DNA of 64,000 nucleotides from Acidobacteriota bacterium. Its GTDB lineage: Bacteria; Acidobacteriota; Terriglobia; Acidiferrales; UBA7541. A program made the translations under genes and the position numbers. The notes beneath the pieces were generated by a model. That model was not told the origin of the DNA, searched no databases, and saw nothing but the letters and a program-made list of their open reading frames with translations. This document shows positions 4,059-16,541 of the stretch, in pieces. Location: positions 46,117 through 110,116 of the forward strand of contig JABCZR010000005.1 of the NCBI GenBank assembly GCA_013289585.1, written 5' to 3'. The number at the start of each line of letters is the position of its first letter. Position 1 is the first letter of the stretch.

Positions 4059-6131
4059 TTAGACCGTCGCGTGTTGCAACTTAAGCCCGCGAAGCAGCTG
4101 AGCATTCGCGGCTACGATGATGGTGGACAGGCTCATCGCGACCGCCCCCACACTCATTGGCAGATCGAATCCCCAGTGGACGAGAAGACCCGCCGCGACC
4201 GGGATAGCGATTAGGTTATACGCAGTCGCCCAGACAAGATTCTGGATCATCTTTCTGTAGGTAGCGCGTGAAAGCTCGATTGCCCCGACAACATCGCGTG
4301 GGTCACTACGCACGAGCACAATTCCGGCGGATTCGATCGCAACGTCAGTTCCTGCCCCAATGGCGATCCCTACATCTGCGGTTGCCAGGGCGGGGGCATC
4401 GTTCACGCCGTCACCTACCATTGCGACCTTCTTGCCGCCGGCCTGAAAGCGCTTCACCGCCGAAGCCTTGTCAACGGGTAGAACCTCCGCTGCGACTTCA
4501 TCGATCCCGATGCGACGTGCGACCGAATCGGCCACTGTTTTCGAATCTCCAGTGATCATCGCGACGCGAAGTCCAAGCCGATGCAGTTCGGCGACGGCTT
4601 CATTCGATTCGGGCCGGATCTCATCTTCCACTGCGAAAGCTCCGAGCAGTTGGTCCTGAGCGACAGCATAGAGAACCGTCTTTCCGTCTGTTGCCCATGC
4701 GGTTGTCAGTTTTTCAACTTCTGGAGGTACCGCTACGTTGGCCTCGATTAACAGGCGAGGTCCGCCGACTACGAGGGTCTCGCCTTCGACCAACGCCTTC
4801 GCGCCACGACCAGCAAGCGCTTCGAAATTCGCGGCGGGCAATTGGGTCACGTTTCGGCGTTTGGCTTCGGTGACGATTGCTTTGGCAAGTGGGTGTTCGG
4901 AGTTGGATTCGACCGCGGCGGCGCGCGCAATCAGATTGTCTTCGGTGGTGCCGGGTGCAGCCGCGACTCCCGACACCGCAGGGGAGCCGCGGGTAAGGGT
5001 TCCAGTCTTGTCGAAAATGACCATATCCAAATTGCGAGCACGTTCGAGTGCGAGCCTGTCCTTAACGAGGAGACCGTTTTGAGCGCCTATGGATGTGGAG
5101 ATTGCGATTACTAGCGGAATCGCCAGTCCAAGGGCGTGCGGGCAAGCAATGATGAGGACCGTTGCTGTTCTGATCAGGGCGTGTTCTCTGTCGCCTGCAA
5201 ACCACCAGTAGGTGAAAGTAATAGCGCCAGATACGACTGCCACGTAAAAAAGGATCGCGGCCGCACGGTCGGCAAGAGCTTGCGCGCGAGACCCCGAAGC
5301 CTGCGCTGTGGCGACGAGCCGCATGATTCCAGAGAGCGCAGTCTTATCTCCAACTGCCGTAATTCTGACGTGAAGGCTTCCGCCACTGGCAACTGTTCCA
5401 GCAACAACTCGGGCTCCAGCTACCTTCGGTACCGTCTTGGACTCGCCGGTGATCATGGACTCGTCAACGTCGGCAGAGCCTTCAGCGACGACGCCATCTG
5501 CAGGAATGCGGGCTCCGGGCCGAACGAGAACGATATCGCCAACGCGCAACTCCGAGAGTGGAACGGATTGAGTGTCTGCGCCGTTTACGCGTTCAGCGGT
5601 GTCGGGGAGCAAGGTGGCGAGCGCATTGAGCGCACCACGAGCCTGAGAAATGGCCCGCATTTCCAGCCAGTGACCGAGGACCATGATCGTAATCAGCGAA
5701 GCGAGTTCCCACCAAACGTCAATCTCGAAGAGGCCGAATGTCGCGGCGAGCGAAGTTCCAAAAGCAACGACGATCGCCAAGCTGATGAGCGTCATCATGC
5801 CGGGTTTGCGGTCGGCAAGTTCACCCCAGGCTCCGCGGACAAAGACCAGTCCGCCATAGACGAAGACGATTGTTCCGAGAATCGCGGGAATAAACTTCGA
5901 ACCGGGAAAGGAAGGGGCGATGTAACCGAGCCAATGCTGAACGTCGGTTGACCAGAACACGACAGGAATTGTGAGGGCGAAACTCAGCCAAAATTTGTCG
6001 CGAAACATAGCAACGGAATGCCCGGCATGACGGTCGTGACTTCCTTGCATGTCTGACATCTTGTGCCCGGTGTGTGGATCGTCCGTCGCTTGGTGACCAC
6101 TGTGGCTCATATTGTTCACATTGAACTCCAA
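4059..6131 (-). CDS. copB: Heavy-metal P1B-type ATPase, CopB-like (P1B-3)
   Basis: His/Met-rich N-terminus, TGES, CPHALGLAIP (CPH), DKTGTLT, SEHPLA, GDGVNDAPAL and YNLIAIP. Start may be the GTG or ATG slightly downstream. Confidence 0.9.
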   Translation of the reverse strand: MEFNVNNMSHSGHQATDDPHTGHKMSDMQGSHDRHAGHSVAMFRDKFWLSFALTIPVVFWSTDVQHWLGYIAPSFPGSKFIPAILGTIVFVYGGLVFVRGAWGELADRKPGMMTLISLAIVVAFGTSLAATFGLFEIDVWWELASLITIMVLGHWLEMRAISQARGALNALATLLPDTAERVNGADTQSVPLSELRVGDIVLVRPGARIPADGVVAEGSADVDESMITGESKTVPKVAGARVVAGTVASGGSLHVRITAVGDKTALSGIMRLVATAQASGSRAQALADRAAAILFYVAVVSGAITFTYWWFAGDREHALIRTATVLIIACPHALGLAIPLVIAISTSIGAQNGLLVKDRLALERARNLDMVIFDKTGTLTRGSPAVSGVAAAPGTTEDNLIARAAAVESNSEHPLAKAIVTEAKRRNVTQLPAANFEALAGRGAKALVEGETLVVGGPRLLIEANVAVPPEVEKLTTAWATDGKTVLYAVAQDQLLGAFAVEDEIRPESNEAVAELHRLGLRVAMITGDSKTVADSVARRIGIDEVAAEVLPVDKASAVKRFQAGGKKVAMVGDGVNDAPALATADVGIAIGAGTDVAIESAGIVLVRSDPRDVVGAIELSRATYRKMIQNLVWATAYNLIAIPVAAGLLVHWGFDLPMSVGAVAMSLSTIIVAANAQLLRGLKLQHATV

Positions 6132-6144
6132 TCATTCAGAACTT

Positions 6145-9100
6145 TCATTGCTGTTCACCTGCTTGGTTCGCGTCCAGCTTCTGTTCTAACTTTAGCGTTC
6201 CTCGCCTGAGGGCCCTTTCTTTCATAAGGGCAAAGAACACAGGCACCAAAATCAGAACGTGGATCGTGGACGTGATCATGCCGCCCACGAGAGGAGCGGC
6301 AATGGGTTTCATCACGTCGGCTCCGACACCGGTTTCCCAGAGAATCGGAATCAGGCTCGCGAGCACAACGCAGACCGTCATTAGTTTTGGCCTGAGGCGA
6401 TGGACAGCCCCTTCGATCACTGCCGCTTCGATGTCCTCGTGACGCAGAGGAACACCGGACTTGAGCCGGTGATCCAGGGCTTCATGGAGATACACAACCA
6501 TGACGACTCCGGTTTCAACGGCAATGCCGAAGAGCGCGATGTAGCCGACCCACACCGCTACGCTGAAGTTGTAGCCGAGCAGCTTCTGCAGAATCAGGCC
6601 GCCCGTCAACGCATAGATCGTCGGGAAAATGAGAACAGTCGCCTCGGCGACGGAGTGAAACACCACGTACAGCAGTAGGAAGATGACAAAAAAGACGATC
6701 GGCAGAATGAGTTGCAGCCGTTCTTTGGCCCGCAACTCAAACTCGTACTCGCCGGACCATTTGTAAGTAAAGCCGGGAGGCAAGGCGAGTTTTTGCTTGA
6801 GTAAGTTGCTCGCGCGCGTGACGAAGCCGCCGTAGTCTTTGGTGTTCAGATCAATGTACACATAGCCTGTGAGCGCACCGTCTTCATCGCGGATCATGGA
6901 CGGCCCTCGAGAGAACGAGAGTTTCGCTACATCAGAGATTGGAATCTGGGCACCAGAGGGCGTGCCGATCAGGACCCGCCGCAATTCCTCGACGTTGTCC
7001 CGGAAGTCGCGGTTATACCGGACATTCACGGGATACCGCTCGCGGCCCTCCACGTTCTCAGCGACCATTTCGCCGCCAATCCCCGAACTGACCGCTTGCT
7101 GCACGTCGGCAATCGTCAGCCCATAGCGAGCCGCTTCTGCGCGGTTCACTTCGATGTTGAGATAGAAGCCTTGCGAAACGCGTTCCGCAAAGATGGAGCG
7201 CATTTCAGGAATCGCAGACAGTATCTGCTGCACCTGCGCGCCAACCTGCTGGACGCCCTCCAGGTTTGGTCCCTGAATCTTCAAACCGAGAGGCGTCTTG
7301 ATTCCCGTTAATTCCATATCGAGACGGTTTTCGACCGGCATGGTCCAAGTGTTGGACAACCCAGGAAACTGGAGTTTCGCGTCCATTTCCTGAATGAGTT
7401 TTTCGTAGGTCATCCCCGGACGCCACTGGTTGCGCGGCTTGAGCATGAGCGTCGTGTCATACATGTCGAGGGGCGCATTATCGGTCGCGCTGTCGGAACG
7501 TCCAACGGCACCGAACACAGTCTCAACCTCTGGAAATGTGCGAATGATCCTGTCTTGTTCCTGGAGCAATTGCGACGCCTGTCCGATGGAGATTCCGGGC
7601 AACGCTGTCGGCATGTAGAGAGCCGAACCTTCGTAGAGGGGCGGCATGAATTGACTGCCAATGTGAAGCGCCAGCGGAAGTGTGACGACCAGAAAAACCA
7701 AATTGAGCAGCAATGTGGTTTTGCGGAACCGCAAGCACAGACGCAGGATCGGCAGATAGACCGCTTGGGTGATTCTTGAAATGGGATTTCGCGATTCAGG
7801 TATCAGCCTTCCGCGAATGAATAGAACCATCAGTACAGGCACGAGCGTGATTGCCAAGACAGAGGAGAACCCAACGGCCAGCGTCTTGGTCCACGCCAAC
7901 GGACGAAACATACGTCCCTCCTGTGCTTCGAGTAAAAAGACAGGCAGGAAAGAAACCACGATGATCACCAGAGAGAAGAAAATTGCGGGACCAACTTGTT
8001 TCGCTGCATCCAGCAGGATTCTCCGTCTCTGTGGCTCGGGGAGAGGCTCGGATTGCGAGGATTGGTGCTCTGAAAGCTGCCGGTATCCGTTTTCGACCAT
8101 GACAATGGCGGCGTCCACGAGGACGCCAATCGCTAGAGCCAAACCGCCGAGCGACATGATGTTCGAAGTGACATGGAGGTAGTACATAGGGATGAAGGCG
8201 GCGAGCACGGCGATAGGCAAGGTCAGAATTGGAATCAATGCGGAACGGAAGTGGAATAAGAAGATGATGATGACTACGCTGACGATGGCGGCTTCTTCGA
8301 GCAGGTCGCGTTGTAGCGTTTCGATGGAGGCGTGAATCAATCCGGAGCGGTCGTATCCGGCGACCACTTCCACTCCCGGAGGCAGCGAGGGTTTGATTTC
8401 CAGAAGTTTCTGTTTGACGCGATTGATGACACTGAGGGCATTCATCCCATCGCGCATCACGACAATCCCGCCAACGGTTTCCCCTTCGCCTTGCCACTCG
8501 GCAACACCCTCACGAATGTCGGGCCCGAACGTGACGGTTCCCAAATCTCGGACGAGAACCGGCGTGCCGTTCTTGGTTGCAACGGGTACGGTTTCGAGGT
8601 CGCTCAGCGAATGCAAATAGCCGAGTCCACGAATCATGTATTCCGCTCCACCCATTTCCAGCAGTCGTCCACCCACTTCGTTCGTACTGGCGCGAACTCT
8701 TTCGATGACCGTTGAGAGGGGAATCCCGTAAGCGCGAAGTTTGTCGGGGTCCACGTTGACCTGGTACTGCTTGACGAATCCGCCGATGGTGGCTACCTCG
8801 GCCACTCCGGAAACCGTGTCGAGCTGATAGCGCAGATACCAGTCTTGAAGACTGCGCAACTCGGCCAAACTGCGTTGATGGCTGTGGTCCACGAGCGCGT
8901 ATTCATAGACCCACCCTGCTCCCGTCGCATCCGGCCCGATGACGGGATGCACGCCTGAGGGCAAACGACCCGTGATCTGCTGCATGTACTCCAAAACACG
9001 CGAGCGAGCCCAGTACAAATCGGTTCCGTCCTCAAAGACAACAAAGACGTAGGAATCCCCAAACATGGTTTGCGCCCGCACGGCCTTTACGTGCGGTGCG

Positions 9101-9324
9101 GCGAGAAGGGTAGTGACAATAGGATACGTGACCTGGTCTTCGATGAGGCTGGGAGGCTGACCGGCCCAAGGCGTGTGGATAATTACTTCCACGTCGGAAA
9201 TGTCGGGCAACGCGTCGAGCGGAATGTGACGCAGGGCCCAGATTCCCGTGAGCACCAGCAGGATTGTTCCCATGAAGACGAGGAAACGATTTTGCGCGCA
9301 CCAATCAATCCATCGGGAAATCAC
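6145..9324 (-). CDS. cusA: CusA/CzcA family heavy-metal RND efflux pump
   Basis: 1059 aa; DALPDISDVEVII, GPDATGAGWVYEYAL, IMSLGGLALAIGVLVDAAIVMVEN, RLRPKLMT and MKPIAAPLVGG. Confidence 0.93.
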   Translation of the reverse strand: MISRWIDWCAQNRFLVFMGTILLVLTGIWALRHIPLDALPDISDVEVIIHTPWAGQPPSLIEDQVTYPIVTTLLAAPHVKAVRAQTMFGDSYVFVVFEDGTDLYWARSRVLEYMQQITGRLPSGVHPVIGPDATGAGWVYEYALVDHSHQRSLAELRSLQDWYLRYQLDTVSGVAEVATIGGFVKQYQVNVDPDKLRAYGIPLSTVIERVRASTNEVGGRLLEMGGAEYMIRGLGYLHSLSDLETVPVATKNGTPVLVRDLGTVTFGPDIREGVAEWQGEGETVGGIVVMRDGMNALSVINRVKQKLLEIKPSLPPGVEVVAGYDRSGLIHASIETLQRDLLEEAAIVSVVIIIFLFHFRSALIPILTLPIAVLAAFIPMYYLHVTSNIMSLGGLALAIGVLVDAAIVMVENGYRQLSEHQSSQSEPLPEPQRRRILLDAAKQVGPAIFFSLVIIVVSFLPVFLLEAQEGRMFRPLAWTKTLAVGFSSVLAITLVPVLMVLFIRGRLIPESRNPISRITQAVYLPILRLCLRFRKTTLLLNLVFLVVTLPLALHIGSQFMPPLYEGSALYMPTALPGISIGQASQLLQEQDRIIRTFPEVETVFGAVGRSDSATDNAPLDMYDTTLMLKPRNQWRPGMTYEKLIQEMDAKLQFPGLSNTWTMPVENRLDMELTGIKTPLGLKIQGPNLEGVQQVGAQVQQILSAIPEMRSIFAERVSQGFYLNIEVNRAEAARYGLTIADVQQAVSSGIGGEMVAENVEGRERYPVNVRYNRDFRDNVEELRRVLIGTPSGAQIPISDVAKLSFSRGPSMIRDEDGALTGYVYIDLNTKDYGGFVTRASNLLKQKLALPPGFTYKWSGEYEFELRAKERLQLILPIVFFVIFLLLYVVFHSVAEATVLIFPTIYALTGGLILQKLLGYNFSVAVWVGYIALFGIAVETGVVMVVYLHEALDHRLKSGVPLRHEDIEAAVIEGAVHRLRPKLMTVCVVLASLIPILWETGVGADVMKPIAAPLVGGMITSTIHVLILVPVFFALMKERALRRGTLKLEQKLDANQAGEQQ

Positions 9325-9325
9325 G

Positions 9326-10888
9326 TTACATGCCTCCCGTGGCGTTCACGCTGAGTTGCTTGGTTGCGATCGGCTGGCCATTCTTTTTTGCGAGGATGGT
9401 GACTTGCCAGGTTCCGCCGTTTTCCAGCAGGCCCGAACCTTCATACAGACCGTTGCCTTTGTCGCTGAGAGTAACGGGCACGCGCATCGACGCCATGCCC
9501 ATCGCGGGCATCGCCGGCATGGAAAACGTCACGCTGACTTCCGCACCGGAGATAGGCGCTCCACCCGCATCTGTGAGTTTCACGCGGAAGACATTGCTTC
9601 CTTTCCGCGGTGTGCTCGGGTCAGAACTCAATTCGACATTTCCTTGCGGAGAACTTGAAGCGGAAGCCGCGCTTGCACCTGGTGGAGGTGGAACGAATGA
9701 ACCGAGTGCAGCCTGAAGCTGGCTTTCGGAATCGATCAGGAAGTTTGCGGAGGTGATAATTTGCTCACCCACCTTCAATCCCTTCAGCACGATAAAATCA
9801 TCACCCACGCGGGTGCCTAACTGCACTTCGCGCGGCTCGATGTAACCGTCGCTACGCTCGACAAAAGCAATCTCGCGAGTGCCAGACTGCAGGACACCGC
9901 TTGCGGGGATGACTAGCTGGTTTCCCATCGAGACCTTCAGACTTACGTTGACGAACATGCCGGGTTTGAGTTGCAACCCAGGATTCGAAAAGACAACGCG
10001 CACTTTGGCCGTTCGCGTATCCATATCCACTTGCGGATAGATAAAGTCCACGCGGCCCGTGAACGTCCGGCCGGCATAGGTATTCACCGTGAGCATTGCG
10101 GGAGCGCCGATCTTGATACGTTCGAGATCGTTCTGGAAGACCTGCGCCTGAACCCAAACGGTCGAAAGGTCCGCAATGGTGTAGAGGCGCATTTCCGGTT
10201 GAACGGCAACGCTGGGCAGAGCATTGCGTTCGGTGATGTACCCAGAGGCCGGCGAATCGACTTCCAGTTCCTGCTGCGCTTGGCCGGTGGATTCGAGCCG
10301 GTCGATTTCTTTTTGTGGAACACCCCACTGTTTGAGACGCTCTGCAGTCGCGTCGAGCAGCGATGTTGCACTGAACGCAACACCTTGCACGGTACTCTGT
10401 GCCACTTGCCGCTGATTCTGCCTGGCCACCAAATATTCCCGTTCGGTGGCCACTAGCTCCGGGCTGTAAACTGTGAAGAGCGGCTGCCCTTTTCTGACGT
10501 ATTGGTACGTGGCATCGGCAAACACCTTTTGGATATAGCCGGAAAACCGCACTTGGACATAGGCCAGCCGCCTTTCATCCACAGCGACACTGCCGGTAGT
10601 GCGAATCTCGTCTGTGACCAATTTCCGTTCGACTTTGCCAGTCTTCACACCGATGCTCTGCAACCGTTGTGGAGAGATCTGCACTGGAACGAGCGACGCC
10701 TCGGTCGCCGCAGGGGGCGCAGCCATCGAGGTGGCCATAGAATCCTGCGCGGTGGAATTCGGCGACTTGGTTTCCAGGTTCGCCGTCGTCTTCGATGCGC
10801 GATAGTGCAGCCACAATCCGACGAGCACGACCGCGAGCACGATGTTTCCAATCAATGCCAGCAAAAATCTTGTGCGATACGCTTTCAT
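9326..10888 (-). CDS. cusB: CusB-like periplasmic adaptor with an extra C-terminal Met-rich beta-domain
   Basis: RFSGYIQKV, KGQPLFTVYSPELVATEREYL, LKPGMFVNV and SANFLIDSESQL, followed by about 110 extra residues containing FSMPAMPAMGM and GTWQVTI. Confidence 0.85.
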   Translation of the reverse strand: MKAYRTRFLLALIGNIVLAVVLVGLWLHYRASKTTANLETKSPNSTAQDSMATSMAAPPAATEASLVPVQISPQRLQSIGVKTGKVERKLVTDEIRTTGSVAVDERRLAYVQVRFSGYIQKVFADATYQYVRKGQPLFTVYSPELVATEREYLVARQNQRQVAQSTVQGVAFSATSLLDATAERLKQWGVPQKEIDRLESTGQAQQELEVDSPASGYITERNALPSVAVQPEMRLYTIADLSTVWVQAQVFQNDLERIKIGAPAMLTVNTYAGRTFTGRVDFIYPQVDMDTRTAKVRVVFSNPGLQLKPGMFVNVSLKVSMGNQLVIPASGVLQSGTREIAFVERSDGYIEPREVQLGTRVGDDFIVLKGLKVGEQIITSANFLIDSESQLQAALGSFVPPPPGASAASASSSPQGNVELSSDPSTPRKGSNVFRVKLTDAGGAPISGAEVSVTFSMPAMPAMGMASMRVPVTLSDKGNGLYEGSGLLENGGTWQVTILAKKNGQPIATKQLSVNATGGM

Positions 10889-12231
10889 TGCTTCACTCCT
10901 TCTTCCTGCAACGACAGTCCCGTGAGTTGTTCGAGCCGAGCGATGGCGGTCTCATATTCGGCGACGTTCTGCCAGTAGTCCTCGTCCAGATGCAGGACAT
11001 CGAGAAACGCTGTCAGTACCGCCTGAAAATCTTGTTTGTTCGATTGGTAAGCGGCGAGGCCCGATTGAAATTCCGACCGCGCCTGCGGAGACAGCCCTTC
11101 GCGGTGAATCTTGAGCAGTTCGGAGGTCTGCTGCACGATCACATATTGCGAGCGTAGTTCGGAGGCGAGTTGCTGCGCTTGGACCTGGAGTTCGCTTCCC
11201 GCCCGAAGCCTTTCGGATTCGGCCTGGGCCAGTTCGGGACGCTGTTTGCGGCTGCGATAGATCGGGACTTTGATGCCAACGCTGAGCATGTAATAGGCGC
11301 GGAATTGCGCGGGGTCGGTCCGTTGCCACATGTACTGCACGTTGAAGTCAGGATAGAAGTCTTTGCGTGCCAGGTTTACCTGTAACGACTGCTTTTCAAT
11401 CGTTTTCTGCGCGGCAGTGATTTCTGGATTCTGTACTTGCGCTGCGGCTAGGAGATCGGCGTAGGTTTGCGCAAGAGGCGTTTCGAGGAGATCGGCCGGC
11501 TCAATGTCCGGTGATTCCTGTGGACGATTGAGGAGCTGTTTGAGCTGGACTTCGAGCTTGCCAGCCTGCAGGTGATGCATGGCGATTTCGCGAAGCAGTT
11601 TGGTTTTTTGGAGTTGCGCCTGGAGGACGTCCTGCTGCGTTCCCATGCCGGAGCGGTAGCGGGCGTCGGCGGCCTGTTCCACTTGCTTGAGCAGCTTGCC
11701 GTCCTCTTCGAGGAGCGTGAGTGTTTTAGAGAGGTACGCTAGCTGGAAGTAGGTGCTTTTGACCTCAGTGAGGACGGCGCGCCGCACGGACTCGATTTGT
11801 TGCTGTGAAACATCCGCGTCGCGCTTTGCAATCTCGCCTTTCAAGCGCAGCTTGCCTGGGTACGGAATGTCTTGTGAAACACCGAAGCCGAGATAGGCGA
11901 AGTCGCTGTTGGTGTAGCCGGCAAAGGGACGAGGGCTTCCGACGCTGACATGCTGCAAATTGAATTGTGGGTCGGGAAGCGTCGAGACTTGTGTCGGCAC
12001 TTGCTTTGCTGCTTCCCAGCCGTGTCGCGCCGCTTCGATTTGCGGATTGTTTTTCTCCGCTTCCGTGAGCAACTCGGAGAGTGGAGTTGCCACTCCCGCG
12101 TGCGAGGATGCCGGTTCTTGGGCAAAGGCGCTTCCACCGAACGCAACAAAAAGCAAAAGCGCAGAAATACTTCGACTCAGAGCTACGCACGACAAGCGCG
12201 CAGCGAAGATCCATTTCGCTATCGAAAACAT
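10885..12231 (-). CDS. TolC family outer membrane efflux protein
   Basis: NNPQIEAAR, PYPGKLRL, ARYRSGMGTQQDVLQAQ and YPDF motifs. ATG at 12231 follows CAGGAG. Stop overlaps the cusB start. Confidence 0.88.
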   Translation of the reverse strand: MFSIAKWIFAARLSCVALSRSISALLLFVAFGGSAFAQEPASSHAGVATPLSELLTEAEKNNPQIEAARHGWEAAKQVPTQVSTLPDPQFNLQHVSVGSPRPFAGYTNSDFAYLGFGVSQDIPYPGKLRLKGEIAKRDADVSQQQIESVRRAVLTEVKSTYFQLAYLSKTLTLLEEDGKLLKQVEQAADARYRSGMGTQQDVLQAQLQKTKLLREIAMHHLQAGKLEVQLKQLLNRPQESPDIEPADLLETPLAQTYADLLAAAQVQNPEITAAQKTIEKQSLQVNLARKDFYPDFNVQYMWQRTDPAQFRAYYMLSVGIKVPIYRSRKQRPELAQAESERLRAGSELQVQAQQLASELRSQYVIVQQTSELLKIHREGLSPQARSEFQSGLAAYQSNKQDFQAVLTAFLDVLHLDEDYWQNVAEYETAIARLEQLTGLSLQEEGVKQ

Positions 12232-12348
12232 CTTTTTCTCCTGAACGTGGACCACGAAGCCGTAGATAGTCGGCGAGTCGCCAATTGGGTCTCGACCGAA
12301 ATCACATCGGGGGTTTAAAGGAACAGCAGAAACACAACAAGAGACAGG

Positions 12349-12368
12349 ACGGTGCGCCGCCGCACCGT
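12349..12368 (-). terminator. GC-rich hairpin just after the leader ORF (possible attenuator)
   Basis: ACGGTGCG-CCGC-CGCACCGT, 8-bp perfect stem. The minus-strand downstream tract is C/U-rich but not a clean U run. Confidence 0.4.
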
Positions 12369-12379
12369 GGAGAAGCGGA

Positions 12380-12730
12380 TCAGATCAGGAGAGAAGAATG
12401 AAGAGTGTACAGCTCTGGAGGTGAATGCTGAGGAGCCTCGAAATCCAAGCGAGAAACTTCGGCGTAAGGCGTCGCCTGGGGCGAAGCATTAACATCGGTG
12501 ACAACCATCACCGGCGCATGAAGCGTTATGTGAGCGACCGGCAACACGCTTGGAGATTGAGGCGAAACCATGCCCTTGCAGCAATCGTGACTTTGGTTCG
12601 ACGGATCGCAGGGCATGGAGCCGCAGCATTGCATACTCCGCTGATCCTGCGTCGTCGCGGACATGCAGTCCGCAAATTGCAGACCCAACAAGGCGACCAG
12701 CGCCACGAAGATGAGTAGTTTCTTGCTCAT
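12380..12730 (-). CDS. Small exported Cys-rich hypothetical protein (putative leader of the copper efflux operon)
   Basis: Signal peptide MSKKLLIFVALVALLGLQFA, six Cys (including CC..C and CC) and C-terminal QHSPPELYTLHSSLLI. First gene of the operon. Confidence 0.7.
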   Translation of the reverse strand: MSKKLLIFVALVALLGLQFADCMSATTQDQRSMQCCGSMPCDPSNQSHDCCKGMVSPQSPSVLPVAHITLHAPVMVVTDVNASPQATPYAEVSRLDFEAPQHSPPELYTLHSSLLI

Positions 12731-13040
12731 TGCCCTATTTGGACTCTAGGTGGATTAGACGCTTGAGTCAACGAAAGGATACAGCGCAGGTCGCACTCAT
12801 CGCACGCGTGACCGAGAGCTGAATGAAGCCCTGATTTTTGTTTGAAGTCGCGAAACTCCGCGTCATTTCTTCCCGAAGGGACGCTGTCAGGAAACTGTAA
12901 CGGTAGTCGTGGAAAATTCGTGAGAACTTGCGAATAAAAGGTGAATAAAGAGGAGAAGTTGACGCTCACGTTTCATCGCAACTTGCTGATTCTCCTCGGA
13001 AAACTCCCGCTCCGGAAAATCATTAATAAGTAACTCCAGT

Positions 13041-13090
13041 GGCTGTTAACCGAAGGGCTGCTCGTTTGAATCTCGCCCGTGAAGGAGCCA
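13041..13090 (+). pseudogene. Degenerate 3' half of a tRNA-Asn(GTT), probable att remnant
   Basis: GGCTGTTAACCGAAGGGCTGCTCGTTTGAATCTCGCCCGTGAAGGAGCCA: anticodon loop CTGTTAA, mutated T-loop (TTTGAAT) and GCCA end. No D-arm or acceptor 5' strand upstream. Confidence 0.75.
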
Positions 13091-13338
13091 AATTCTTCAC
13101 GTCCCACTGACAATACTGTCCATTTCAGATGTGCGGAACTAATCGAAGGCGATCTTCTGGGTTCTCTGGCCCCGGAGCTTTCCTAGGTCCGTCAATCTCC
13201 ATCGCAACGTCGTCGGCGCGATGCCCGAAGCCGTGCCTGTGTGTAGAAGGGGAGCCGAGTTTGCGCGGCGAACGAATCGGAAACGCGAGCAAGAAAACGA
13301 GCCGCTCAATTCGCGACAAGGGAAGGAGCGAGAAGTCC

Positions 13339-13378
13339 TGTTGCACAAAATTCTGCGTGTTGCACATTCTGTTGCACA
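13339..13378. repeat. Three direct 9-bp repeats TGTTGCACA (arm-type integrase site candidates)
   Basis: Exact copies start at 13339, 13358 and 13370, about 100-135 bp from the tRNA-Ser fragment end. Confidence 0.65.
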
Positions 13379-13432
13379 AAACGCTGCCAAGACCGCCCAA
13401 AACACCCCATTTCGATGTAGTACTGTGTACCG

Positions 13433-13445
13433 TAAGTTGTTGATT
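13433..13445 (-). promoter_or_regulatory. IHF-type binding site
   Basis: Minus strand AATCAACAACTTA is a perfect match to WATCAANNNNTTR and lies between the arm repeats and the tRNA core. Confidence 0.6.
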
Positions 13446-13474
13446 TGTTTCAGGTGGGGGTACTACCTAACGAA

Positions 13475-13513
13475 TTTCAAGACCGCCGGTTTCAACCGCT
13501 CACCCACTCCTCC
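13475..13513 (-). pseudogene. 5' half of tRNA-Ser(TGA) ending at the anticodon loop (att site)
   Basis: Minus strand GGAGGAGTGGGTGAGCGGTTGAAACCGGCGGTCTTGAAA, then TTCGTT where the stem requires ACCGC. Confidence 0.85.
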
Positions 13514-13517
13514 GTTT

Positions 13518-13682
13518 CTAATTATAACCAACTGTATTTAGTGGGCTTATTGGTGACACTTTCGGCTTCGATTGCTGCAATTTGGTGCATAGTGTCACCA
13601 AATTGTCACTAAAACCTTCCAGTTTTTGCTTCGCATTTCGCTTGGCGTCGAGATTTGTGTGCGTGTAGTGCAAGGTTACGGT
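13518..13682 (-). pseudogene. C-terminal remnant of a tyrosine integrase
   Basis: Manual translation TVTLHYTHTNLDAKRNAKQKLEGFSDNLVTLCTKLQQSKPKVSPISPLNTVGYN*. The YTH catalytic-Tyr-like motif and the stop 4 bp before the tRNA-Ser 5' end fit; upstream sequence is not integrase-like. Confidence 0.65.
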
Positions 13683-13907
13683 GGGTGCTTCTCGACTCTG
13701 CCGAATTGAATTAGTGGCTATGTGAGCGACGCTTGACGACGCACCCTTCCAATTCCATTTTGACCTTCTGGTTTACTTCTCGGTACGAGCGGGAGTAACA
13801 TGAGCTCCAACCCGGGTCTGGCGACCTGCATCTTGGCACCACGCAGGAGCCTTCCGATTTCCCAGTGCAGCTAGAACGGTCCACTGGGGCTAGGTGCTAC
13901 TCTTCCA

Positions 13908-16541
13908 ATGGCCGAGCCCCGCATGCAATCCGACATTGCCGTGACTTCCGCTCGGGATCTGAGCGGAACAACCATCGGTAGATTTGCGATCCAGGAGCTG
14001 CTTGGCAAGGGCGGCATGGGCGAAGTCTACCGTGCAAGTGATCTTCGTTTGAAGCGTCAAGTGGCTCTCAAGCGCATTGCGCCACACCTCCGTGGTGACA
14101 AGCGCTCCCGAGAGCGGCTTTGGAAAGAAGCGGAATGGGCATCTCGCCTCAGCGATCCTCACATCGCTGCAGTTCACGACGTCATCGAGGAAGAAAGCGA
14201 ACTTTTCATCGTCATGGAGTACGTCGAAGGGCAGACACTGCGTCGGCGCCTTGCGGAGCCGATCCCAGTCCTCGAATTCTTGCCCATCGCTACGGAGTGC
14301 GCCCTGGCCCTGGCGGCGGCACACAATGCGGGTGTCGTTCATCACGACATCAAGCCGGAAAATATCATGTTGACTACATCAGGCCAAGTCAAGGTCTTGG
14401 ACTTTGGTGTGGCCAAAAACCTTCCCAGCCGGCCTGAATCTTCGACTTTGAGCACGCAAACCTGCACGGAGTTTGCGGGGACATTGAATTACATGGCGCC
14501 TGAAGCCGTTCGCGAGGAGGAATCCGATTCTCGTGCCGATATCTTTTCTCTTGGTATAGTTTTTTACGAGGCAATTGCAGGGAGCAATCCTTTCCGCGCC
14601 AAGAGCTTTCTCGAGACCAGCGATCGCATCTTGCACCATGACCAGGTTCCATTGTGCGAATTGAATCCGAAGTTGCCTGCGGAGTTCGACCGCATCGTAG
14701 GCAAGATGTTAGCTAAGGACTCCGCACGGAGGTACTCAACGGCAGCCGATTTGGCGGTTGACCTGCGCGCTCTGGAACGCTCACTCACCGAGTCAGGAGT
14801 ACACGTTATCAGACAGCTGCCTGTTGCAAGACGTCGATGGGTCATGCCCTGGGGCCCACTCATTCTGGCGGCAGCGTCCTTAGTCGCAATCGCGGTATAT
14901 ACCCCCGCTCGACAGCAGCTCAAGGCTTGGCTGGGTATTAGTTCAATACCCCGTACAAAACAGGTCGCCGTATTGCCGCTCAGCGTTGCAGATGGCGATG
15001 CGCAAACTGCAGCGTTCGGGGCCGGCCTTACTGAGACGCTTACCGCCAAGCTCACGCAACTCACCGGAGATCCCTCGTTGCAAGTGGTTCCCGCAACTGA
15101 GATACGCGGCAAGCATGTCAGCACGGTGGACGACGCACGCAAGGAGTTCGGCGTAAATCTAGTACTCGAAGGCAGCCTGCATAAATCGGGCCAACAAGTA
15201 CGCGTCAATTACATTTTGGTGGATGCTCGGACGCGCCGCCAATTGGGCGCTGAGAGTCTGACTCTTGCCGAGATGGATTCCTTTGCGGCCGAAGACGCGG
15301 TCGTGAATGGGGCAATACAGATGCTCGAGCTCGAGATCCAGGGTCGCCAACGAAAAACTCTTGAGAGTCACGGGACACAGGTAGTCGGAGCTTATGACTA
15401 TTACCTGCAGGGGAGAGGATATCTTCAAAACTATGACCGGGTGGAGAATCTCGATAGTGCCATCCAAGTCTTCAAACGCGCCCTGGCTCTCGATCCCAGC
15501 TACGCCTTGGCTTACGCGGGTCTGGGCGACGCTTATTGGAAGAAATACCGGAGCAACAAAGAACCCTCATGGATTGAAAAAAGTCGCGAAGCCTGCCAAC
15601 AGGCCAGTCGTTTGGACAGCAGGTTGTCTTCCGCCCATTCCTGTTTAGGGACGCTATCCGCGGGAACGGGAAACTATCAGGAGGCGGCGCGAGAATTCGA
15701 ACAGGCCGCTGAGACCGAACCAACTAATGACGACGCATTTCGCGGTCTGGCCGGAGCCTACGAGCATTTAGGCAAGCTCGAAGAGGCAGAAAATACATAT
15801 CGCAGGGCGATTCAGCTACGGCCTCACTATTGGGCTGGTTATAATTGGCTGGGGGCATTTTACTATCGACATGTGCGTTTCCCGGACGCTGCCGAGATGT
15901 TCAATCAAGTAGTGGCCCTTGCTCCTGACAGTTTCCTCGGCTATTCCAACCTGGGTGCCACCTACGTTGAGCAGGCCCGCTATGCAGACGCAATTAAAGT
16001 TCTTGAGCAGTCTATCGCGATACGTCCCTCCGACTATGGCTACACCAATCTCGGCAATGCTTACTTCTTCTTGCGGCGCTATGATGAAGCCGATCAGGCC
16101 TACGAACAGGCAATTAAGCTTGCGGAAAAGGATTCGCTCCTCTGGTGGAATCTGGGGGACGGATACTATTGGACACCAGGAAAACGTAGCCAATCAGTGG
16201 CTGCATATCGGCAAGGTATCACCATTGCGGAGGAAGAGCTCCGTGTCAATCCGAAGAATTCATATTCGTATGGCGTCCTCGCCATCTGCCACGCGATGCT
16301 CGGGGAGAAAAAATTGGCATTGAACGCCCTAGGGAGCGGACTCCGGCTCTCGCCGGCCGATCCGTTCCTGCTCTTTCAAGCCGCGTTGGTTTACAACCAG
16401 ATCGGTCAGTCAGATGAGGCTATCGCTTGGTTGAAGAAGGCACAGACTGCAGGGTATTCCCAGGCGCGCATACAAGACTACCCAAACTTTGATTCATTGT
16501 GGGCAAATCCGCGATCTAAGGAATTGCTCCGCGAGAAATAA
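13908..16541 (+). CDS. Hanks-type Ser/Thr kinase with TolB-like middle domain and C-terminal TPRs
   Basis: LGKGGMGEVY, VALK, HHDIKPEN, DFG, GTLNYMAPE and DIFSLG; VAVLPL and LVLEGS middle domain; multiple TPR motifs. Confidence 0.92.
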   Translation: MAEPRMQSDIAVTSARDLSGTTIGRFAIQELLGKGGMGEVYRASDLRLKRQVALKRIAPHLRGDKRSRERLWKEAEWASRLSDPHIAAVHDVIEEESELFIVMEYVEGQTLRRRLAEPIPVLEFLPIATECALALAAAHNAGVVHHDIKPENIMLTTSGQVKVLDFGVAKNLPSRPESSTLSTQTCTEFAGTLNYMAPEAVREEESDSRADIFSLGIVFYEAIAGSNPFRAKSFLETSDRILHHDQVPLCELNPKLPAEFDRIVGKMLAKDSARRYSTAADLAVDLRALERSLTESGVHVIRQLPVARRRWVMPWGPLILAAASLVAIAVYTPARQQLKAWLGISSIPRTKQVAVLPLSVADGDAQTAAFGAGLTETLTAKLTQLTGDPSLQVVPATEIRGKHVSTVDDARKEFGVNLVLEGSLHKSGQQVRVNYILVDARTRRQLGAESLTLAEMDSFAAEDAVVNGAIQMLELEIQGRQRKTLESHGTQVVGAYDYYLQGRGYLQNYDRVENLDSAIQVFKRALALDPSYALAYAGLGDAYWKKYRSNKEPSWIEKSREACQQASRLDSRLSSAHSCLGTLSAGTGNYQEAAREFEQAAETEPTNDDAFRGLAGAYEHLGKLEEAENTYRRAIQLRPHYWAGYNWLGAFYYRHVRFPDAAEMFNQVVALAPDSFLGYSNLGATYVEQARYADAIKVLEQSIAIRPSDYGYTNLGNAYFFLRRYDEADQAYEQAIKLAEKDSLLWWNLGDGYYWTPGKRSQSVAAYRQGITIAEEELRVNPKNSYSYGVLAICHAMLGEKKLALNALGSGLRLSPADPFLLFQAALVYNQIGQSDEAIAWLKKAQTAGYSQARIQDYPNFDSLWANPRSKELLREK

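Follow-up and report, generated by a model that had tools for sequence, protein, structure and literature searches.

The stretch of DNA analyzed here (64,000 nucleotides (nt) of contig JABCZR010000005.1, GenBank assembly GCA_013289585.1, from an Acidobacteriota bacterium; the whole stretch is hereafter called the window) carries on its minus strand a metal-efflux operon whose first gene is a small open reading frame (sORF, 12730..12380). The sORF encodes a protein of 116 amino acids (aa) that opens with MSKKLLIFVALVALLGLQFADC / MSKKLLIFVALVALLGLQFADCMSATTQDQRSMQCCGSMPCDPSNQSHDCCKGMVS, closes with APQHSPPELYTLHSSLLI and is followed by a TGA stop. Its N-terminus has the n/h/c layout of a signal peptide, with MSKK, a hydrophobic core of 15 residues and ADC, an assignment made by eye and from an AlphaFold helix at residues 2-38. 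The six cysteines (C22, C35, C36, C41, C50 and C51) form a cluster that is putatively a periplasmic metal or redox sensor. A preliminary description of the locus had named a signal peptide, six cysteines and an HSPP...SLLI tail in the sORF, an 8-bp GC hairpin 11 nt past its stop, a C/U-rich tract before tolC and an efflux operon downstream. All of these are present (Table 1), the hairpin at 12368..12349, where it folds at -14.1 kcal/mol, the tract from 12348 to about 12310 directly after it, and the operon with TolC/OEP-like, CusB-like and CusA/CzcA-type RND genes. The left edge given to the element, at 12256, was too short, the likely tolC start being the ATG at 12231 behind AGGAG rather than the GTG at 12255, and the intergenic region is therefore 148 nt long (12379..12232). 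The pump genes overlap or lie at most 13 nt apart, and the junction between sORF and tolC alone is long.

In the last gene of the operon, the translation of the P1B-type ATPase shows a His-rich N-terminus (HSGHQ...HDRHAGH) and a CPH motif within IIACPHALG, which together we take to mark the CopB type, and the RND pump carries ...VDAAIVMVEN..., a motif of the monovalent Cu/Ag type. Because the linked ATPase is CopB-type and the RND pump CusA-type, copper (or silver) is the likely metal, and the operon most likely serves to export copper/silver. Next to it, no gene for a dedicated metal regulator was found, and scans with Pfam and NCBIfam revealed no CusF homologue within it. The CusB-like adaptor (9326-10888, minus strand) has a YtkA-like/FixH-like domain at aa 417-498, behind a Pro/Ala/Ser-rich linker; the CusF gene being absent, this domain may take over the role of metal delivery in the periplasm.

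Table 1. Features of the sORF-headed operon in the window (SD, Shine-Dalgarno sequence; positions are those of the window).
Feature	Positions	Strand	Basis or remark
Leader sORF, first gene of the operon	12380..12730	-	116 codons + TGA
Export signal, aa 1-21 (MSKK, then hydrophobic core)	12668..12730	-	sequence inspection and AlphaFold helix 2-38; kept in the family
Cys cluster, aa 22-52: C22, C35-C36-x4-C41-x8-C50-C51-K	12575..12667	-	invariant or near-invariant columns in alignments A1 and A3
Linker ("ruler"), aa 53-101, length fixed, sequence variable	12428..12574	-	spacing counts, pN/pS, AlphaFold
H102-S-P-P105 motif	12416..12427	-	family consensus H-[AS]-P-P; P104 and P105 nearly invariant
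C-terminal tail ELYTLHSSLLI	12383..12415	-	family ending [LF]-[LR]-[IV], then stop
Anti-SD UCUCCUGA within the last sORF codons	12385..12392	-	SD pairing predicted by RNAalifold and single-sequence folds
GC-rich hairpin ACGGUGCG-GCGG-CGCACCGU	12349..12368	-	8 bp, begins 11 nt past the stop
GUCUCUU box, within the C/U-rich tract	12339..12345	-	near-invariant in the close clade; weaker second SD complement
tolC ribosome-binding site: SD UCAGGAGA 12244..12237, ATG 12231..12229	12229..12244	-	conserved in all close loci
Sigma-70-like promoter TTGACT-17 nt-TAGAGT	12743..12771	-	consensus scan
TolC/CusC-like outer-membrane factor	10885..12231	-	Pfam OEP, E = 4.8e-48
CusB-like membrane-fusion protein, C-terminal YtkA-like domain	9326..10888	-	Pfam HlyD_D23 2.7e-78, YtkA 7.2e-17; NCBIfam CusB and CzcB models
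Heavy-metal RND pump, CusA/CzcA family	6145..9324	-	TIGR00914, 1097 bits, above cut-off
P1B-type ATPase, CopB-like, last operon gene	4059..6131	-	Pfam E1-E2_ATPase and Hydrolase; start codon uncertain

Judged from its substitution pattern, the sORF is a genuine gene under selection. Among 13 orthologues, the ratio of non-synonymous to synonymous divergence (pN/pS) is 0.24 overall, falling to 0.10 in the Cys block (aa 22-64) and 0.12 in the tail (aa 99-116, with pS 0.44), and reaching 0.39 in the linker (aa 65-98) and 0.44 in the signal peptide. Since these ratios are low while synonymous sites have diverged (0.40-0.61; 0.44-0.61 for the Cys block and tail), selection acts on the peptide and not on the RNA alone. 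The protein belongs to a large family: 1550 homologues, none of which carries a name, were retrieved at E<=0.01 from a large protein collection, and a profile search of 1.84 billion representatives yielded 249 clusters (50% identity) at E<=1e-3, nearly all of them 110-125 aa long. Within the phylum, the family occurs in 27 of 401 sampled genomes (21 of 228 genera), several copies (two or three) being present in some of them; in the source genome the sORF is single-copy, with no paralogue. Among public loci from metagenome-assembled genomes (MAGs), 16 are close relatives, mostly labelled Candidatus Acidoferrum or Acidobacteriota. An Rfam scan of positions 11500-14500 at E<=1 returned nothing.

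Several parts of the protein are kept in sequence, and others in length only. The export signal is kept across the family and often terminates in a conserved cysteine, which stands in a lipobox-like context (VLAC or AMAC) in some subfamilies and in FADC in the window; the CC-x4-C-x8-CC(K) cluster is conserved family-wide. The linker sequence is not conserved, but its length is: 94 of 111 members have 51-54 residues from the second CC to the PP motif, and the PP motif itself lies 13-14 residues from the C-terminus in 95 of the 111. The proline motif reads HAPP (36), HSPP (30), HGPP (6) or YSPP (5) in the same 111 members, and the C-terminus is invariably [LF]-[LR]-[IV]-stop, mainly LLI (50), LRI (31) or FLI (10; n=99). 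In the distant PLRI subfamily, the eight residues from HAPP to PLRI vary freely at constant spacing. The signal peptide, Cys motif and PP tail are thus the features retained across the 249 clusters, a conservation that the preliminary description had proposed to check. The AlphaFold2 model (85-sequence alignment) has the N-terminal helix at 2-38, no secondary structure at 53-116 and no predicted globular domain, with a predicted template-modelling score (pTM) of 0.30 and a moderate predicted local distance difference test (pLDDT) of 65-83 along the chain. The stop codon is fixed within subfamilies and differs between them, being TGA in the window clade and TAG in 67 of 79 PLRI loci. Stop-codon bias as a sign of slow termination was considered and rejected, as TAA, compared with the genome (25% TAA), is not underrepresented across independent groups.

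Envelope genes for metal homeostasis follow the sORF directly, and on the same strand, at all loci that were examined, and the position proposed for it ahead of such genes therefore holds beyond the window. In the first arrangement, TolC-CusB-CusA genes follow the sORF, as in the window; in a second, CusA comes first (L009, L034, L035 and L043). A third has a gene for an outer-membrane-barrel-like protein of about 285-330 aa, then one for an exported HMA/CopZ-like protein and, at some loci, also one for a TlpA-like thiol-disulfide oxidoreductase, and a fourth has a protein of about 410 aa and no known identity (L036 and L042). The intergenic region between the sORF and the downstream gene is unusually long, at 66-150 nt, and its length is constant inside each subfamily.

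The sequence next to the sORF stop is predicted to pair with the SD at the other end of this region. The octamer UCUCCUGA in the last sORF codons (12392..12385) can form a perfect 8-bp duplex (-13.5 kcal/mol) with the tolC SD UCAGGAGA (12244..12237), and RNAalifold, applied to 17 close loci, pairs CUCCUG of the last sORF codons with CAGGAG of the tolC SD while also keeping the hairpin. The hairpin, in which 6 of 8 pairs are G-C, is retained in related loci, where both of its sides have changed so that G-C became C-G, and distant subfamilies have equivalent hairpins of other sequence. This hairpin is the RNA structure named in the preliminary description. It is present, but in the predicted fold it is the apex of a larger structure. 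An SD clamp with its anchor at the stop codon forms the base, and this clamp, rather than the nested hairpin, is the main element.

The generality of the clamp was assessed by folding the segment from 24 nt before the sORF stop to 6 nt after the downstream start at 39 loci with well-defined starts, and by requiring at least 5 SD bases to be paired within -24..+22 of the stop. The SD was paired in this way in 37 of the 39 family loci, compared with 31% of 400 control gene pairs, which were co-directional pairs of the source genome with intergenic regions of 60-160 nt. Because folding a segment favors pairing of its ends, the control pairs were folded in the same way; with long flanks of 60/30, 100/60 and 150/100 nt, pairing dropped to 13%, 10% and 7% in the controls and was 72-74% in the family. 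Many loci are interrelated, so per-locus counts overstate independence; counted per independent sequence cluster, SD pairing was found in 10-11 of 14. These folds are thermodynamic predictions, and some of the downstream start codons are heuristic. The anti-SD lies either in the last five codons (the window clade and four others) or at +3..+17 past the stop; in most lineages the nucleotides predicted to pair with the SD flank the sORF stop, from -15 to +17. Two CusA-first loci have no SD, and there it is the stretch of 15 nt ahead of the start codon that pairs with +2..+16 past the stop.

A similar pattern is predicted in the PLRI subfamily, sampled as 80 soil-metagenome loci found with a single protein (P0233) as query. 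With long flanks, the SD pairs with +2..+15 past the stop in 61 of 74 loci. The non-coding helix ACCUCCAG:CUGGAGG is 97.9% paired over 55 distinct sequences, with changes that are one-sided and wobble-preserving only, and the inner hairpin has changed on both of its sides, from G-C to C-G. Given the intergenic alignment of the PLRI loci, RNAalifold picks another register, in which CUYCG of the L-R codons pairs with UGGAG; both registers flank the stop codon, and the pair counts were made explicitly for the post-stop register.

A further conserved segment, the GUCUCUU box, is found in the C/U-rich tract. It stands just behind the hairpin and is near-invariant in all 17 close loci: in alignment A2, no variation occurs at G56, C58, U59 and U61, and conservation reaches at least 90% at U57 and C60. 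In a constrained fold with the primary anti-SD masked, the SD pairs with this box instead. A second UGUCUC-like copy lies about 12 nt beyond the box in most of the 17 close loci (UGUUUC in the window), and the loci with a GUCUCU box include L009 and L016, whose surrounding sequence differs. The box could equally be a protein-binding or pause site.

Small exported proteins that control copper genes in cis are already known, and it was asked how the window family relates to them. The link to CutF and CruR had been drawn by analogy only, and analogy it remains. The window protein has no PF11162 (DUF2946) match at E<=1, none of 85 family members has one at E<=10, and a genome-wide PF11162 search of the source genome found nothing. 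Comparison of alignment A3 with seven acidobacterial DUF2946 sequences (a small alignment) by hhalign gave a probability of 3.5%, with 8 columns aligned around x-x-x-H-S-P-P and x-x-x-R-A-P-P. The motifs differ as well: acidobacterial DUF2946 members have H-C-x-x-C, whereas the window family has C22 and CC-x4-C-x8-CC rather than a single CXXC/CxxxC, and DUF2946 proteins carry RAPP or PPP within about 3 residues of the C-terminus, compared with the more distant H-[AS]-P-P of the window family. What is shared with DUF2946/CruR is a conserved Cys-to-Pro spacing. Genuine DUF2946 genes (HCxxC...RAPP-x3-stop) are carried by a few genomes of the phylum, but at loci other than that of the sORF, in G099 on a different contig.

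In Rhodobacter capsulatus cutFOG, copper-induced stalling of the exported nascent CutF chain melts a stem-loop that shields the SD (Ozturk et al. 2023, PMC9973294 = bioRxiv 10.1101/2022.11.11.516240; bioRxiv 10.1101/2025.02.05.636593). The mature CutF peptide is reported as undetectable or quickly degraded. The window sORF is like CutF in being a small Sec-exported protein whose gene comes first in a copper-detoxification operon, with a Cys motif exposed to the periplasm during synthesis, a PP-containing C-terminal region and an intergenic stem whose anti-SD shields the next SD. No similarity in sequence or profile was detected between the two, and the window sORF has CC-x4-C-x8-CC in place of CxxxC, and H-[AS]-P-P, 12 codons before the stop and followed by a conserved L-[LR]-I end, in place of PPP. 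The published filters for CutF-like proteins (<150 aa, PP among the last 15 residues, an N-terminal signal peptide, and the next gene downstream on the same strand at <1000 nt; Ozturk et al. 2023, PMC9973294) retain the window sORF, which has 116 aa, P104-P105 at 13 and 12 residues from the end and tolC 148 nt downstream on the same strand, the signal peptide being judged by inspection. In that survey, the commonest neighbors were OEP/RND genes and the carriers mostly Pseudomonadota and Bacteroidota; its main text does not mention Acidobacteria (PMC9973294). As the Pfam and hhalign comparisons were negative, it is doubtful on sequence grounds that the window family is within the published CutF-like list D.

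CruR (Bp2923 of Bordetella pertussis, PF11162) has a Cys-to-RAPP ruler of 45 residues, conserved to within 1-2, and turns an importer off when copper is present by Rho-dependent termination in a 162-nt intergenic region (PMC9426467). It resembles the window sORF as an upstream ORF of a metal operon with an export signal, a Cys motif, x-A-P-P and a long intergenic region behind it (162 nt, compared with 148 nt in the window). It differs in that RAPP is 3 residues from the end rather than 13-14, and in that the conserved feature of the window family is SD sequestration before exporters, not Rho termination of an importer. CzcI, SilD and CusD of Cupriavidus metallidurans, set beside the window family here by description, are likewise small exported ORFs immediately before the outer-membrane-factor gene of an RND operon (czcCBA, silCBA and cusCBA). 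They have been proposed as metal-sensing regulators and grouped with CutF-like clusters by iterative sequence search, and CzcI is without the C-terminal proline motif (PMC9973294). SecM, VemP and MifM, upstream of Sec/YidC genes, share with the window family an exported nascent chain, an arrest tuned by translocon force and a stalled ribosome that opens an SD structure, but they monitor export capacity and not a periplasmic ligand, have no Cys cluster and arrest at most 5 codons from the stop. Altogether, the kind of system is already known, and the window family is an unannotated one, apparently unrelated to DUF2946 and wired differently. Conservation of the motifs and their position before metal genes support the proposal that the sORF may be an acidobacterial analogue of CutF and CruR; because its PP lies 12 codons before the stop and is not C-terminal as in those proteins, the wiring must differ.

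The reading preferred here, with a probability of roughly 0.55, is that the sORF product is an exported leader peptide of the CutF-like kind, which acts in cis and controls whether the copper/silver efflux operon that follows is translated. It is preferred because a selected exported peptide with two rulers, a clamp with its 5' arm inside the footprint of a ribosome on the stop codon and an exclusive placement before metal genes together match CutF logic. As long as no ribosome occupies the end of the sORF, the clamp would conceal the ribosome-binding site of the pump genes; a ribosome reaching and dwelling on the last codons or the stop would melt it, and a 30S subunit could then start on tolC. 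During export through SecYEG, the Cys cluster would have freshly emerged in the periplasm, and its state (metal-bound or disulfide-bonded) might alter the pull on the nascent chain and thereby how long or how often ribosomes dwell at the end of the ORF. Arrest could take place at either of two points. It might occur as the ribosome terminates, when PP would sit about 12 residues up the tunnel, in which case arrest would mean ON; this option accounts for the fixed distances from PP to stop and from stop to anti-SD. Alternatively, it might occur at the PP codons, 36 nt before the stop and beyond reach of the clamp, in which case arrest would mean OFF and metal-triggered release ON: the Cys cluster, on binding metal or folding, would tug the chain loose, a mechanism also proposed for CruR, and the ribosome would run on to the stop and open the clamp. 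This second option offers metal-ON logic for an exporter, yet it leaves the fixed tail length unexplained.

Several results weigh against the leader-peptide reading. The distance from PP to anti-SD varies between 26 and 50 nt, so a ribosome stalled at PP cannot reach the anti-SD downstream, and the published CutF geometry is therefore not directly transferable; in a constrained fold with a ribosome at P104, the clamp of the window is indeed predicted to stay intact. SD pairing is not predicted in L009, L034, L038, L042 and L044, and 7-31% of ordinary control gene pairs show SD-sequestering coupling in the same test. The GUCUCUU box, as modelled, could keep the SD partly paired even under a ribosome at the stop. 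Moreover, homology of the family to DUF2946 is not detectable by Pfam or hhalign, and the small Cys-rich peptide could be a stable metal-binding protein beyond the reach of AlphaFold modelling.

In TnaC, a cytoplasmic leader, the key residue spacing is that from W12 to P24. A bolder form of the leader-peptide reading, which at present seems unlikely, is that the family represents exported arrest peptides of a new class that block termination rather than elongation. At the stop, the invariant Pro-Pro would lie about 12 residues up the tunnel, near the constriction, with the invariant Leu-[Leu/Arg]-Ile end at the peptidyl-transferase center. The Cys cluster, some 65 residues away, would be outside SecYEG, where metal or a disulfide would decide whether release is delayed, and the ribosome parked at the stop would unzip the flanking anti-SD clamp and turn the metal operon ON. 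This would amount to TnaC/PepNL-like arrest governed across a membrane, and it would account for constant PP-to-stop and stop-to-anti-SD distances alongside a PP-to-anti-SD distance that ranges from 26 to 50 nt. Termination-stage arrest is documented for TnaC and PepNL (PMC8450073, PMC11890864). If arrest does occur at the stop, the likeness to these peptides comprises a key residue about 12 up the tunnel (P104 to I116 here), defined last residues and a parked ribosome that controls the downstream gene; the differences are that both are cytoplasmic, of 24 and 14 aa, and tryptophan-sensing, whereas the window family is exported, about 116 aa long and metal-linked.

The features of the protein itself could also be read without any regulatory role. 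As the main alternative, the sORF product might be an ordinary exported accessory protein, namely a periplasmic copper/silver-binding chaperone or buffer replacing CusF, translationally coupled to the pump for stoichiometry, with the conserved tail as a docking or degradation signal, for example a hydrophobic-x-hydrophobic end read by a PDZ protease. In favor of this, the exported product has six conserved cysteines and its operon is without a CusF homologue; the terminal L-[LR]-I is kept whatever its codons, which fits a function at the protein level, and both the moderate pLDDT along the chain and the SD-sequestering coupling seen in a part of ordinary gene pairs are compatible with it. It is nevertheless somewhat unlikely, as no fold is predicted (pTM 0.30, no secondary structure beyond residue 52), and a linker of fixed length and free sequence with PP fixed to the stop is the signature of a ruler, not of a domain. 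The sORF is, furthermore, only ever the first cistron, always with a long structured intergenic region after it, and some sORF-headed operons are without an RND pump, so that it is no pump-specific chaperone. A CusF-type metallochaperone in particular was rejected, the protein having no Pfam or NCBIfam match and an AlphaFold model without strands (pTM 0.30).

The RNA allows other readings than a clamp gated by the leader peptide. Transcriptional attenuation could be the main output, with the hairpin and U/C tract as an intrinsic terminator or the C-rich, G-poor tract as a Rho loading site, and with the position of the ribosome at the end of the sORF setting read-through into tolC, as in CruR or TnaC; this would be compatible with the clamp and may contribute further control. 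A terminator scan does flag hairpin 12368..12349 with the tail CCTGTCTCTT, several other subfamilies (e.g. L033, L037 and L042) have a hairpin with a U-rich tail, the hairpin is conserved with compensatory changes, and CruR provides a precedent in its 162-nt intergenic region. The U-tract of the window is poor, however, opening with CC and broken by G and C, and many subfamilies (L028, L040 and L041) have no U-run behind the hairpin. Since the hairpin starts just beyond the stretch that a ribosome on the stop codon covers, it could still form while that ribosome terminates, and what is conserved across subfamilies is SD pairing and not a terminator. Attenuation as the main output therefore appears distinctly improbable, and the hairpin as a canonical intrinsic terminator was set aside for its weak U-tract, which is not conserved among subfamilies, and is kept as a minor rival. 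That the sORF is a chance ORF or non-coding leader RNA, of which only the structure regulates, is almost certainly wrong. The sORF protein does lack matches in Pfam and NCBIfam scans, and the sORF lacks a clear SD of its own, but the strong purifying selection on its amino acids while synonymous sites diverged, and the frame, length and motifs kept in hundreds of divergent homologues, effectively refute this reading.

Outside the RND operons, the leader is also found before other genes of interest. In RND-less operons (L019, L025, L026, L027, L029, L047 and L068-L147), the first gene after the leader encodes the exported protein of about 285-330 aa, which reads HGPVFGYATP... or APETAPPLFPGGG..., has no Pfam or NCBIfam match and appears to represent an unannotated family of outer-membrane beta-barrels with a link to copper genes. 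In operons with the PLRI leader, at 57 soil-metagenome loci within L068-L147 (e.g. L070:3898-4422), the HMA/CopZ-like gene reads ...IEMRVEGMT-TGA-N-F-TGA-AYGVKQHL..., in-frame TGA replacing both cysteines of the GMxCxxC metal site. From sequence, this gene is a candidate for a U-x-x-U selenoprotein, and a perfect hairpin, GGACGCC-AGUCU-GGCGUCC, about 35 nt downstream could be a selenocysteine insertion sequence (SECIS) element. When TGA is read as U, the protein has a Pfam HMA match and a match below cut-off (36.8 vs 95 bits) to NCBIfam NF041115, "UxxU metal-binding (seleno)protein". UxxU metal-binding selenoproteins appear in a 2026 review, and the protein looks like a divergent exported member of this known kind. 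Cys counterparts (GMDCAPC) are found in L019, L025, L027 and L047.

At its 5' end, the unit in the window starts close to its promoter. The promoter-like site finishes 12 nt ahead of the sORF ATG, and the 5' untranslated region is therefore very short or absent. In related loci (alignment A5), 4-12 nt separate the end of the -10 hexamer TAGAGT from the start codon of the sORF, and neither there nor in the window was a clear SD found for the sORF itself. Because the -10 is so close and an SD is missing, a leaderless or near-leaderless sORF mRNA is possible, and the leader peptide may be translated from one. Among related loci, only the promoter-bearing block of about 50 nt upstream is conserved, for which reason the unit begins with promoter and sORF and sits in neighborhoods that differ between genomes. 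When window positions 12731-12783 are compared with L002-L016, the upstream similarity ends about 50 nt before the sORF ATG. MAGs with the labels Verrucomicrobia, Limnocylindria and Baltobacteraceae contain copies of the promoter-leader-pump unit at about 80-90% identity, which points to a mobile module or to mis-binned contigs. ARAGORN found no tRNA in 12700-14000, where a half-tRNA would escape detection.

To our knowledge, there are only two proteins, both of the DUF2946 family and both from Proteobacteria, for which experiments have shown that the nascent chain senses periplasmic copper during export. The window adds a large unannotated family with hundreds of divergent clusters, mostly from soil Acidobacteriota, in which the same logic would be carried by other motifs and another geometry, and this suggests that the strategy arose more than once or diverged beyond recognition. 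Natural variation in the family, with two fixed rulers, two anti-SD positions and three operon types, bears on the way in which an extramembrane event reaches the ribosome. Thousands of "hypothetical proteins" thereby gain a testable name, and the family draws attention to a layer of metal resistance that would act after transcription in bacteria abundant in soil.

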